A stretch of DNA of 64,000 bases from Octopus vulgaris (lineage: Eukaryota): NCBI GenBank assembly GCA_951406725.2, contig OX597818.1, positions 18,476,001-18,540,000 of the forward strand, read 5' to 3'. Under the pieces are notes generated by a model. The model saw nothing but the letters and a program-made list of their open reading frames with translations. It ran no database searches and was not told where the DNA came from. Of this stretch, positions 12,876 through 63,862 are shown piece by piece. A program made the translations under genes and the position numbers. Position 1 is the stretch's first letter; every line of letters starts with the position of its first letter.

Positions 12876-12985
12876 GTGTATTCTATACTGATGAGCATAC
12901 ACATTAATGTAAAGCTGTGCTTCAAATTTTTGCGTACTGAAAATAATACTAATTGAACAATTTTACGAAACGGCAGTAGTTACAC
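12876..12985 (+). ncRNA. Degenerate hammerhead-like motif with long stem II
   Basis: CTGATGA (12888-12894) ... GAAAC-GGCA-GTA (12967-12978); stem I and stem II pairing are poor. Confidence 0.35.
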
Positions 12986-13227
12986 GAAAGTCATGTGGAA
13001 AGTTCAAATAATTTTCATCTCTTACACCAGGATTTGAGGTTTGTATGTATATAGTATGTATATAACACATACACACAAATACATACATACATACATACAT
13101 ACATACATACATACATACATACATACATACATACATACATACATATGTATATAACACATACACACAAATACATACATAGATTCATACATACATACATATG
13201 TAAATGTCTGAGTGAGTCTGTGCGTGT

Positions 13228-13514
13228 GAAGGCGCGTGGTTTAGCGGTTAAGGTGTTCGACTCATGATCTTAAGGTCGGGAGTTCGTTTCTCCAGACACT
13301 TTATTTCATGTTGCACCAGCCCACTAAGCTGGCAAAAACGAGTAGTACATGTATTTCAAAGAGCCAGCCTAGTCACGCTGAATTTCCCTGAAGACTACGT
13401 GAAATGTACGCATGTTTGTGGAGTACTCAGCCACTGGCTCGTTAATTTCACGAGCCGACTGTTCCGTTAATCGGATCAACTGGAATCCTCGTTGTCGTAA
13501 GCGACGGAGTACCA
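13228..13514 (+). mobile_element. tRNA-derived SINE related to the 49748 copy
   Basis: Head GAAGGCGCGTGGTTTAGCGGTTAAGG; body GTGGAGTACTCAGCCACT; tail CGACGGAGT. Confidence 0.85.
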
Positions 13515-13777
13515 GATGAAGTCGAATAAGTGTATATTGAAATACATATAGCGTTTGAAATATATATTGTTCACTCGTCACGTATTATTTATATTGATTA
13601 GCATTACCATTGAGAAAAAGGGGAAAATTAATTTGATAATCAGAATTTATGACCATTGAGCATTAGAAGACGCACAATCACGTTTCGAGCATAAAAACTA
13701 AACGGAACGATTCGAGGTTATGCCGAATAATTTAGAGCAAATATTGAATAATTTTGAAAGTAAACCATATGGCAATT

Positions 13778-14097
13778 GGTACTTCGTCGGTTGCGACGAC
13801 AAGGGTTCCAGTTGATCTGATACACGGAACAGCTTGCTCGTGAAATTAACGTGAAAGTGGCTGAGAACTCCACTGACACGTGTGCCCTTAACGTAGTTAA
13901 CGGGGAGATTCAGAGAGACACAGAATGGGACAAGGCCGACCCTTTGAATTACAGGTAAAACTCGTTTTTGCCAGCTGAGTGGACTGGAGCAACTTGAAAT
14001 AAAATTCTTGCTCAAGGACTCAACATGCTCCCGAGAATCAAAGTCACGACCTTACGATCGTAAACCTATTACCCTAACCACTAAGACACGCGCCTTC
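13778..14097 (-). mobile_element. tRNA-derived SINE, same family, inverted relative to the 13228 copy
   Basis: Reverse complement shows the same head, body and tail. Confidence 0.85.
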
Positions 14098-60403: not shown

Positions 60404-61296
60404 TACGAAGGGGTATCCAAAAGAAAACGGAATTTTGTAATATTTTATTCACATAGGTTGCATGTTTACAATTTTTATTGATTTCAAAGCATTCTTCATT
60501 TCAAGCAGCGTATCGATCCAGATGCCTTTCCCACTATTCGAAGTAATGCTGGAGCTCTTGCGAAACGATGCTTTTCTAACGCCTCCGTCGTTTTTTTTTC
60601 TTCACGTCTTCAACATCCACAAATTCCGTAGCATCAACTTTTGTCACCTGTGATGACCTTCGAAAAAAGGTCCGGATCAACTTCCAACTGTTCTTTCAGT
60701 TCACGACACGCATTCAGTCGTGATTGCGTTTGATCTTTCGTGAATAAACTGCAACTCTTTTCATTCGCAATTCCTAGCTCAAAATTCGTTGGCAGGATCT
60801 CCAGGACACACCAGTCATCATATCAAGTTCGTGAATTGTTCGGTGACTGTCCTCCAAGATCAGTTCATAAATTTTCCTGATGTTTTCATTCGTTTGGGTG
60901 GTCAACGGTCGTCCTTAACGAGGTTGGTCTTCAAGCGGCAAGTGATCATTCTTAAAGCGTGGAAACCATTCCTAAACTTGTGCTTTGCTCATGGTGGCGC
61001 CCTTGTAAGCTGTTTGAAGCATGACAACTATTTCGGCCACCATTTTCCCCAGCAGAAAACAGAATTTCACGGCAGCATGCTTTTCCTTTGATTCAGATAT
61101 CACAAAAATCGACGAACAAGGGAGGAACACAGCAAAGCATAGACGCATCACATGCCAGGACTGCATCACTGAACGACGCCGGTCGGCAGACTGATGCCTC
61201 AGTACCGCATCAAGTGTCTTCTAGCAGCGGAAGCCTGAACTACAACGGTCTTGTCCCACGGGGAACGTTTCTGGTTACTTTTAGGTAACCCTTGTA
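60404..61296 (-). mobile_element. Internally deleted mariner transposon
   Basis: KEKHAAVKFCFLLGK..MLQTAY..MSKAQV*EWF..GRP; imperfect TIRs TACGAAGGGGTATCCAAAAG / CTTTTAGGTAACCCTTGTA. Confidence 0.85.
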
Positions 61297-62699
61297 TGTG
61301 TATATGCATTGATACATACATAGGTACATACATAAATAATACATACACACACATACATTTATGCATATACATATATATATATATATATATATATATTATA
61401 AAATGTAGTTGAGGTATTCTAGTATATATTTAATAATTTAAATAAACAAGTCTTATCTAGCGAAAACCCAATGTATTGTTATATAAGTTTTAATAAGGCT
61501 TCTGATAAGATTATTCTATGGATCCGCCTTCAGCTACGATGACTACTTCAATATCCGCGCAGAATTGTTCATATTCCTGCTCTAAATGGTCCTTATTTAT
61601 TTCAGGCATCACCTTGAAAATAGCAACCTTCTGTGAAATCATGGTATTATAAAAATGTCGATTGGTTTCCGTTTAAGCAACACGACACAGGATTTAAGTC
61701 TGACGAATTTGGAGGACACAAGTCGAATGTTCTATGATGGTAAACATTGTCTGACGTCCATTCTTGGATTACGTGGGATTTCTGCTATAATCCCGAGTGT
61801 TGCTGACACACGTATGGCCTTCTATTGTCTACTTCAAACATTCGGGTTTTAACAACAGTCTCCAGAACCCCAACGTATCCAATAGGCATTAATTTAAAAT
61901 CCTGTGGAAAGATGTGAGGTAGCATGATATGACTCGTTACTAACCACCCTTAAAACAATAGTGCTCACTGAAATTTAGTTTTTATCACTCTGGAGACTTC
62001 CGAAATCTCAGCATATAACCATCTTCCACTTCTCCTGTTACACTTTTGGTGTTGATTGAAGTTATTCTCATCAAAGAAGTAAAGCATGCGATGTCCGTGA
62101 TTTAACCGTGTTAAGTAACCGCTTGGTACGGATCACAGAGTTTTTGTATATTTGCTGACATGAATTGGCCTCGCCTCAGTATATAGGACTTGTATCAAAT
62201 GTCCTGGTGTACCTCAGGACTGTGGTGCTAAGAAAATAATACTATGCAGCAGACTGACATGTTAGATTCTAAGATCACTGGGAACACACACAAAAATGGA
62301 ATCATGTTGTTCTTATGACGAACATTTCTGCTTAGTCACCAAGATTACTGTTCCCAATTATGGTCGCCACAAAGTGTCAAATTATAGACAGAACCCGAGT
62401 GGACGTCACTGCATTGTATTAAAATCGCATCATGTCGACCAGGGTGAGAACCTAATATTGTTACAGGACCACCAACTTTTCAATATATTGTCAAAAGTCC
62501 TCTGAGAACAACTGTTTTATTCGCTTCCTCATCAGGAGCGATTCCAGAGTCACGGCCGTAAAGTGAGTTTAATGGCGGTGGCCTGGCATGTCCAAAACCT
62601 CTGGCTGAAACGGATAATAAAGTAATAATAGAATATGCATATCAATGATCCCATATGTCCTTCCAGGTTTGCTTTTCTCCCACAGTCTTCATTGCGCGG

Positions 62700-62878
62700 G
62701 TCATATATTGGTTTCAAGCTTTGGCACTAGGCAAGCAATTTCTAAAAAGTGGAAAATTCGATTACATGGACCTCAGTATTCAACTGGTACTTATTTTATC
62801 GACCCACAAAGGTTGACAGGCAAAGGTGACCTCGGTGGAATTTGAACTCAGAACGTGAAGACAGCCGAAATACCACTA
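62700..62878 (-). mobile_element. Degenerate 18938-type SINE
   Basis: CTGGTACTTATTTTATCGACCC..GGCAAAGGTGACCTCGGTGGAATTTGAACTCAGAACG. Confidence 0.85.
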
Positions 62879-63816
62879 TATAATTAAATTACCTTCTTAG
62901 TATCCGTGTGCATGTAGAGTTATATATTTTGGGGTGTGTGTGGATGACTCGTGAATGACCATATATGTGTACGTGAGATTATGTGCATGTATGTCATTGT
63001 TCAATTTTATTTCAAGATTTCTTGCCAATAGAGAAAGTGTCGGTTTCTAACTTAGATCTAAGGCTCCTTGTTTGAAATTTCAACATCAACAGGGAATATT
63101 TGTATATATGTATGCATGTATGTATGTATGTATGCATGTATGCATGTATGTATGTATGTATGTATGCATGCATGTATATATGTATGCATGCATGTATGTA
63201 TGTATGTATGTATGTGTTGTATGTATATTACTCTCATGCATATAGCTGCATATCTAGACATACTCAGATACACTTAAATGATAAACATCTGGAAAGATGT
63301 ACAGATATAGTGTATATGTATGTATGTATGTATGTATGTATGTATGTATGTATGTATGTATGTTTGTATGTAAGTATGTATGTATGTATGTATGTATGCA
63401 TGTATGTATGTATATTTGTTTTTTGTGCATATGTCTGTACGTATTCGTGTACTCCCTCATCACAACCACCTGTTTTGTGTCTTTCTACCGCCGTCCATTT
63501 CTTTTTCTATTCCAATCCGTATTTCTTTGTCACTCCCTACATACGTCATGCATTGTCACGTCTTTTACCTTACGAGAGCATTTTTCTCTACGGTAACTGC
63601 AGTGAATTTGGTTTTTTTTTAGGAGTTGAAATATGTCTCAAACATATTTTAACTGAACTAAACTTTGCTTATGCCTAAACACAGCTTGATGTTGATATTA
63701 TGGCAATTTCCACAAACTTGGCTGTCTACTTGCCCGAATCAGTTAATGTCGTTGACTGTATTTTATTAAAAGCTATGCTTTGATAAATTCTATCCCGAGT
63801 GGCTTCTCTTAGGTAT

Positions 63817-63862
63817 TTCCCATTGATACGGGTAAAGAGCTAGAAACATCGATGTCTGGGAA
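63817..63862 (+). ncRNA. Degenerate hammerhead ribozyme (core mutated)
   Basis: TTCCCA-TTGATAC-GGGTAAAGAGCTA-GAAAC-ATCGAT-GTC-TGGGAA: perfect 6-bp stem I, palindromic ACATCGATGT stem III, GUC site; CUGANGA and stem II decayed. Confidence 0.6.

Follow-up and report, generated by a model that had tools for sequence, protein, structure and literature searches.

Hammerhead ribozyme motifs as probable ends of Penelope-like elements in a 64-kb window of the Octopus vulgaris genome, one of them behind a tRNA-derived head

A 64,000-nucleotide stretch of Octopus vulgaris DNA (GenBank assembly GCA_951406725.2, contig OX597818.1, positions 18,476,001 to 18,540,000; henceforth "the window", in whose own coordinates and strands all positions are given) holds a scatter of small type I hammerhead ribozyme motifs. 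The window is free of N, has a GC content of 36%, consists of simple repeat to about 19%, and carries the debris of long and short interspersed elements (LINEs and SINEs) and of mariner-type elements. Nine motifs are considered here: seven had been proposed in a sequence-only reading of the same DNA, five of them as the clearer ones and two as decayed, and two more (26384- and 26473+) are added.

Five motifs stand out. The one at 39776..39821 (-), called 39816- after the position of its C3, is an intact minimal type I hammerhead with a 5-bp stem I, an extra A after A9, a 6-bp stem II, an ACGU palindrome in stem III and a predicted cut after 39781. The motif at 45522..45599 (-) (45595-) also has an intact core, together with a 4-bp stem I, a long stem II and the palindrome ACAUAUGU. 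At 29323..29357 (+) (29327+) the core carries the change U4 to C, while stems of 4 and 4 bp and an ACGU palindrome are present; at 60213..60262 (+) (60220+) core and stem II are intact and stem I has decayed to one contiguous base pair; and the additional site at 26319..26388 (-) (26384-) has U3 in place of C3, stems of 4 and 5 bp, and the palindrome ACCAUGGU. All five have a palindrome and a stem II of at least 4 bp; a stem I of at least 4 bp, an extra base after A9 and a G10.1-C11.1 closing pair are each found in four of the five. Taking the nine together, the CUGANGA/GAAA/NUH core is perfect in three (39816, 45595, 60220), changed once in two (29327, 26384) and broken in four. The motif at 63817..63862 (+) is decayed: a stem I of 6 bp and a palindrome of 10 nt survive, but G8/A9 are gone, as is the stem II arm on the 5' side. 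That at 26469..26538 (+) (26473+), which falls under the score cut used below, is the decayed inverted partner of 26384. Both are believable as fossils, judged from their context.

Two kinds of search set the first five apart from chance. A descriptor consisting of CUGANGA, GAAA, a perfect palindrome, NUH and stems I and II of at least 4 bp was compared, in six settings, with 200 shuffles of the window in which dinucleotides are kept within 200-nt blocks. In its strict form it finds two sites (39816- and 45595-) against a shuffle mean of 0.01, and 0/200 shuffles reach two; with one core mismatch allowed it finds four (adding 29327+ and 26384-) against 0.04 expected, again a count seen in 0/200. 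All five settings that include stems give counts reached by no shuffle (0/200), whereas core and palindrome without stems give three sites against 0.98 expected, matched by 14/200 shuffles, which is weak: because core and palindrome by themselves are near chance, it is the stems that carry the hammerhead signal. A score-based scan returns the same four sites and 60220+ at a score of 28 or more (28.8-36.5), against 0.06 expected per shuffled window (393 shuffles); comparison with dinucleotide-shuffled sequence was the check that the sequence-only reading had proposed for itself, and within the window the outcome bears it out in part. The next-best sites, 16634+ and 11559-, score 22-23, which is the level of chance, and 63817+, 22835+, 12876+ and 26473+ are not recovered even at 22, where chance supplies about two. 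(A technical note: both descriptors were designed after the sites had been seen, and are to some degree fitted to them.) Rfam at its gathering score finds none of the motifs and has 0 matches in the window; over the whole window at E<=10, the best 150 of 217 matches are microsatellite-driven and miRNA-type alone. Single-strand folding z-scores of the motifs are weak (-2.2 to +1.3).

The earlier list of seven survives in part. Its coordinates are right throughout; two of its sites are intact (39816- and 45595-), three sites are imperfect and significant once 26384- is counted in, two or three are fossils, and 12876+ is unsupported. Four of its five clearer motifs (39816-, 45595-, 60220+, 29327+) beat the shuffles and the fifth, 63817+, is a plausible fossil that the scan does not recover; the palindromic stem III that it saw in all five is real. 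Its frequency of about one motif per 10 kb describes the window alone (5-7 motifs per 64 kb), and strictly intact motifs come to one per 32 kb. The flanks, which it had described as shared by none, are indeed unrelated in 72 comparisons, with the exception of microsatellites and of the added pair 26384/26473.

The surroundings of 39816- are the most informative. An insertion of 1.25 kb on the minus strand, from about 40975 to 39728, breaks up a 46-bp minisatellite, and its parts follow one another in this order: an inverted 120-nt piece of reverse transcriptase (RT), a 5'-truncated open reading frame (ORF), about 30 nt of untranslated region (UTR), a tRNA-like head, (AAT)n, an ATG, the hammerhead and the element end. 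The ORF, at 40007..40831 (-), is that of a Poseidon-type Penelope-like element (PLE): decayed, it retains the end of the RT, the thumb, a short linker and an endonuclease, and about 30 nt of 3' UTR separate it from the head; the inverted piece at 40828..40950 (+) belongs to the same ORF. Its identity to RT-bearing proteins that carry PF00078 and PF26215 reaches 67% (34 matches among 264 candidates), and a profile of full-length relatives matches it with an E-value of 6e-83; Pfam alone gives it no family, and the name GIY-YIG for its endonuclease rests on motifs read by eye. The short linker without a zinc-finger motif between RT and endonuclease fits the definition of Penelope/Poseidon (PMC8557442). 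The minisatellite itself spans 36850-42689 in some 80 diverged copies and overlaps a 207-nt inverted repeat at 36548-37485.

Downstream of the head, the rest of the pseudo-long terminal repeat (pLTR) of this element occupies 39728..39908 (-): an (AAT)n linker at about 39902-39868, an ATG at 39850, the hammerhead, and the element end at 39728. The frame opened by this ATG traverses the hammerhead; the window copy breaks it with a single in-frame stop, at a position where that copy differs from about 97% of the family depth. Its translation is similar to the N-terminus of P0015, one of the full-length relatives (10/15 residues, E 0.023). Another relative, P0022, opens with 39683-39841 translated in antisense (E 1e-6), which can be read as an inverted pLTR preceding a truncated ORF; this short antisense motif recurs, weakly, in P0005 and P0013. 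By its arrangement, then, the 39816 hammerhead is part of its family's pLTR and overlaps the start of the ORF, as in PAc, the Poseidon element of Anolis carolinensis (PMC11167929). A pLTR with a hammerhead, an inverted 5'-truncated piece and an optional tail of 30-40 nt are all found at 39728-40975. Metagenome and prokaryote contigs contain no match to the hammerhead motif of 24 nt, and no relatives of P0015 are found in viral or prokaryote contigs.

The head (39909..39977, minus strand) is derived from tRNA-Arg(ACG): about 49 of 70 positions are identical from tRNA +1, which is also the family's 5' boundary, with an A-box-like sequence at 39970-39960 and a B box at 39927-39916. A pattern made from its 3' half occurs at no fewer than 115 metagenome loci, ARAGORN places a tRNA containing the pattern at 111 of these, and each of its 115 such calls is Arg(acg), with no other isotype; the free positions of the pattern were chosen with tRNA-Arg in mind. 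The 5' part of the head, which lies outside the pattern, aligns with a score of 18.1 against 12.8 when shuffled. Together these demonstrate, at the level of sequence, a tRNA origin, and the head answers to the description of a SINE head in SINEBase (PMC3531059): tRNA-derived, with A and B boxes. The majority letter of the family at 39968 improves the A box, and among the nine motifs only 39816 has a B box within 450 nt upstream. At its default score ARAGORN reports 0 tRNA genes in the window, the head included; relaxed, at scores of 70 or below only, it proposes a tRNA-Ala, which was rejected in favour of the tRNA-Arg alignment. Neither on the head nor anywhere between 39.7 and 40.0 kb does Rfam return a relevant match, and a comparison of the head with phages gives five matches, at chance level.

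Sequences matching 39700-41000, wholly or in part, occur in 20 sequencing runs from 12 studies under five organism labels. The reads were analysed over 39701-40500 at 82% likeness. Two DNA runs, from organism A (the best DNA match) and from C, a related species label, gave 34,785 and 26,750 matching contigs; two RNA runs, both of C, gave 9,760 and 7,203 matching reads. Contig depths add up to 3.6-6.2 million over 39728-39835, to 1.5-2.8 million over the head and to 0.04-1.3 million over the ORF bins; such sums are no copy number and are taken only as the sign of a very large family. The 39816 family is very abundant. Within 39776-39821 the window copy differs from the family majority once among the best 40 of 322 variants, by a pair-compatible change in stem II. 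One class of 3' ends stops at 39728-39731, and the flanks beyond are mixed (agreement 0.42-0.50 in DNA); a second runs on for about 30-40 nt with one consensus (agreement 0.70-0.87): these are the two end points that define a PLE tail. Loose 5' ends at 39977/39978 have mixed flanks in DNA (61, 45 and 47 contigs; agreement 0.42-0.44), and in RNA lead mostly into an inverted second head; opposite-strand joints connect 39827-39852 with 39974-39978. Coverage in run X23 is 667 reads at 39993 and 634 reads at 39979, with no loose end between these positions among the best 24 of 1797. We infer that the head usually comes next after the ORF end and that the junction, present in reads of two species labels, seems general; among the contig pieces listed, none spans it. 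Reads are cut at the (AAT)n linker, so that the linkage of head and hammerhead shows directly only in the window copy and in the low read depth across the linker.

Two peculiarities of the family are recorded here in their own right. At position 39782, three letters of the palindrome in stem III are missing from about 7% of the reads in each of the two RNA runs; among the DNA contigs this form is rare. And at 39960-39995 the junction of PLE 3' UTR and tRNA head is quasi-palindromic; many RNA reads go from it into the inverted second head instead.

The other motifs have settings of their own. 26384- and 26473+ form a head-to-head inverted pair (26177..26690, without strand) whose hammerhead-bearing arms of about 210 nt are flanked by (TA)n tracts, an inverted arrangement as in PLE insertions. 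Around 60220 lies a unit of 305 nt (59989..60333, plus strand) whose ends share a direct repeat of 40 nt (a partial tandem or a PLE tail) and which stops at a microsatellite; around 63817 lies one of 346 nt (63557..64000, plus strand), with a direct repeat of about 100 nt, that extends to the end of the window. (TA)n lies 114 nt downstream of 45595- and 104 nt downstream of 29327+. More generally, (TA)6 or longer stands 104-222 nt downstream of five of the nine motifs (four of eight independent loci), against a background of 8% within 230 nt, and within 230 nt upstream of none of the nine. A bias toward microsatellites is known for several PLE clades (PMC8557442). The sequence-only reading had overlooked the tRNA head, the PLE ORF adjoining 39816, and the inverted pair between 26.2 and 26.7 kb.

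All this is best accommodated if the five above-chance motifs are the ends (pLTRs) of several unrelated PLE families, left as 5'-truncated, inverted or partial-tandem insertions that are mostly decaying; we put the probability of this at about 0.8. The link to PLEs is direct for 39816- and supported by anatomy for 26384/26473, 60220 and 63817 and by the (TA)n targets. A mechanism can be borrowed from the anole Poseidon element: the PLE protein would bind its own RNA near the ORF start and nick AT-rich DNA, and reverse transcription would start close by on the 3' side of the hammerhead, at either of two sites. Because it is primed there, each insertion would begin with the hammerhead region; early termination would then generate solo hammerheads that outnumber ORFs, and these solo copies would subsequently decay. 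A defect of core or stem I is already present in three of the five significant motifs.

Several observations weigh against assigning these motifs to PLEs. A confirmed PLE ORF adjoins just one of the nine: a profile search, with a profile biased toward Poseidon, detects none beside any motif other than 39816, 45595- included. No hammerhead was found near the second PLE fragment of the window, at 54761-55520 (+). The hammerhead-coded peptide is found in one of 67 relatives of at least 750 amino acids; the (TA)n pattern was noticed post hoc; and the read analysis covers the 39816 family alone, one motif of nine. Neither of the two fragmented RNA-seq runs, finally, has RNA ends piled up at any position, including the cut site. 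For fragmented cDNA such an absence says little, and it matches what was seen with PAc, where RNA-seq ends are likewise absent at the cut site (PMC11167929).

Would these hammerheads cleave? Stem III palindromes form duplexes between copies worth -1.7 to -12.9 kcal/mol, whereas a monomeric (intramolecular) stem III gains no energy; little monomer cleavage is accordingly to be expected from the model, since the palindromes pair between copies. Each motif is predicted to cleave poorly alone, needing a second copy (by palindrome pairing) or the PLE protein, and solo genomic copies would be mostly silent as ribozymes.

What is the tRNA head doing in a PLE? The simplest origin is the capture of an (AAT)n-tailed SINE: a short tRNA-Arg SINE with such a tail was probably taken into the 39816 pLTR early and has been copied along since. 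Transcription from the head by RNA polymerase III (Pol III) is putative, judged from its A and B boxes; its continued use would explain 5' ends at +1, for which the quasi-palindromic junction is a rival cause. (The Penelope promoter, for comparison, overlaps an intron in the pLTR; PMC8557442.) Going a step further, a Poseidon-type PLE may have taken a tRNA-Arg Pol III promoter into its pLTR, a little upstream of hammerhead and ORF start, and this pLTR may have grown into one of the dominant short repeats of the genome, a hammerhead SINE mobilised by a PLE and not by a LINE, with the autonomous partner possibly also transcribed from the head. This is a tentative proposal, which we would sooner doubt than adopt.

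Equally tentative is a rival to the main explanation, in which the solo copies of the 39816 family are true SINEs: Pol III would start at tRNA +1 and make an RNA of about 250-290 nt containing the PLE binding and priming region, to be served in trans by a Poseidon protein. The coincidence of the 5' boundary with tRNA +1, where many copies start, with flanks that are mixed in DNA, is what such an element should leave, but RT stalling or fold-back at the quasi-palindromic ORF-head junction could also pile up 5' ends there. Both boxes are in place, the A box bettered by the family's majority letter, and no run of four T interrupts 1104 nt of the sense strand, though this lack is not significant (P 0.10-0.47). 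The head is some 1.3-2.3 times deeper than the adjoining ORF end; the hammerhead, however, is about twice as deep as the head, and 229 reads of one run differ upstream of 39830, so that not every copy has the head. First mates of the RNA reads fall equally on both strands, with no pile-up at a start; the linkage of head to hammerhead is seen directly only in the window copy and, at low read depth, across the linker. The window copy, moreover, is fused to a PLE ORF through a junction that seems general, and a PLE would take the place of a LINE as partner, while SINEs are by definition LINE-dependent (PMC3531059). Non-LTR retrozymes, circular-RNA replicons reinserted as monomers, were the other origin offered in the sequence-only reading, beside the PLEs that have held up. 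The 60220 and 63817 units, with their terminal direct repeats, lie within the size range of animal retrozymes (PMC7229834), and monomers are common in some retrozyme families (bioRxiv 10.64898/2026.07.22.740005). Yet the window contains no two hammerhead units in tandem, the direct repeats do not begin at the cut site, and 39816 is tied to a PLE ORF; we regard this origin as unlikely, with the reservation that the preprint derives retrozymes from PLE pLTRs, which makes the two readings overlap for 60220 and 63817. As for chance matches in AT-rich, repeat-rich DNA, the near-random yield of core plus palindrome, the four motifs missed by the score scan, the blank from Rfam and the weak folding all speak for them; the excess of high-scoring and stem-bearing sites over shuffles, and the PLE context, speak against. 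That chance should account for most of the motifs is highly improbable: it is refuted for the five significant sites and stands for 12876, perhaps also for 22835.

Assigning the five motifs to PLE ends places them in known company. Some 2,000 and 1,300 such motifs have been counted in Schistosoma mansoni, about 4,000 in the coelacanth and 9,000 in Xenopus tropicalis, chiefly solo, heterogeneous and of low activity even as dimers (PMC4209133), and 235 Rfam hammerheads are reported for the giant squid (PMC6962438). Because thousands of solo, diverse PLE hammerheads per genome are already published, the "layer" of dispersed hammerheads on which the sequence-only reading laid its emphasis is mostly of a known kind, and adds one more rich genome. 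The octopus motifs share with those published a short stem I, the extra base after A9, a palindromic stem III, diversity within one genome, a mostly solo state and some opposite-strand pairs 100-700 bp apart. They differ in the much longer stem II of 45595 and 26384 and in palindromes of up to 8-10 nt; local density (two strict and five significant sites per 64 kb) also looks higher than the published few thousand per genome, in a comparison of differing descriptors and a single window. Of the 900 young SINE families in a recent annotation of Octopus vulgaris, 893 are unclassified, and in the portions available hammerheads are nowhere mentioned (PMC13282606).

The closest relative in organisation is PAc (PMC11167929), which also has its hammerhead over the ORF start, two 3' end points marking the tail, and AT-rich targets. 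Unlike PAc, where the ATG lies at stem II, the 39816 family has its candidate ATG 34 nt before C3, and it contains tRNA-derived sequence in the pLTR, of which, in the portions available, no mention is made for PAc. The combination of a Pol III-type promoter followed by a type I hammerhead recalls the SINE-like SM-alpha repeats of Schistosoma (PMC6765202, PMC8490949); those are tandem repeats with a canonical hammerhead and, in the portions available, no described PLE ORF, whereas the 39816 unit is a Poseidon-type pLTR. Animal non-LTR retrozymes resemble the present motifs in their type I hammerheads, units of a few hundred nucleotides and relation to PLEs (PMC7229834; bioRxiv 10.64898/2026.07.22.740005), and differ in the tandem hammerhead units that the window lacks (PMC7229834).

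Among molluscs a tRNA-derived head is not new. The OR1 and OR2 SINEs of Octopus, of tRNA-Arg origin, have one too, but the 39816 element, compared with them by description only, has no room for a CORE domain, its head running directly into (AAT)n and pLTR. (OR1 and OR2 have been named CORE-SINEs; PMC4824008, PMC4758252.) A PLE pLTR with a tRNA head was not found described in the literature searched, Repbase and Dfam entries, subscription papers and supplements (including the consensus libraries of PMC13282606 and PMC8557442) lying outside that scope; it looks like an unreported variant, with SM-alpha as its nearest precedent. If the head is indeed fixed in the pLTR, it would amount to a partnership of PLE and SINE with both partners at one locus, and would offer a possible origin for repeats, such as SM-alpha, that join Pol III promoter and hammerhead. 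The high copy number of the 39816 family is, besides, a natural mutational scan: is the hammerhead kept for cleavage, or for coding and priming? The question arises because the hammerhead of PAc is dispensable in vitro (PMC11167929).

Two of the originally proposed motifs fare poorly. 22835..22903 (+) is a doubtful hammerhead fossil, with a 7-bp stem II, two or more core changes and no palindrome; 12876..12985 (+) is unsupported as a hammerhead, with 72 nt between its half-cores, no palindrome and no NUH. On the strand opposite to 22835+, a possible decayed remnant of thumb and GIY-YIG endonuclease was seen by eye at about 21870-22740 (-). As a Neptune-like remnant it is unconfirmed: phmmer finds 0 matches, Pfam and NCBIfam no family, and the PLE profile search nothing. 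An Atlas lead alone supports it, with scores below 0.8; the family-bearing matches of a 62-amino-acid piece share the GIY-YIG clan (10/10).

Other elements complete the inventory. The PLE fragment at 54761-55520 (+) is decayed; its linker, longer and bearing cysteines, looks Neptune-like to the eye, and it includes an endonuclease (profile E 3e-6). A word search finds no homologues for this fragment. Two copies of a 434-nt repeat, 56198-56631 and 56846-57279, are 92% identical and flanked by (AAT)n; no hammerhead is found in this duplicate (56198-57279). Another tRNA-like SINE family, without hammerhead, is represented at 13225-13514, 13777-14100, 9434-9761 and 49736-50124. Remnants of mariner/Tc1-type transposases lie at 11563-12051 (PF17906) and, by eye, at 24385-25000, 54200-54680 and 27674-28135. 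A LINE at 32409-35376 (-) retains an apurinic/apyrimidinic (AP) endonuclease (PF14529, PF03372) and an RT (PF00078) in long open frames broken by frameshifts.

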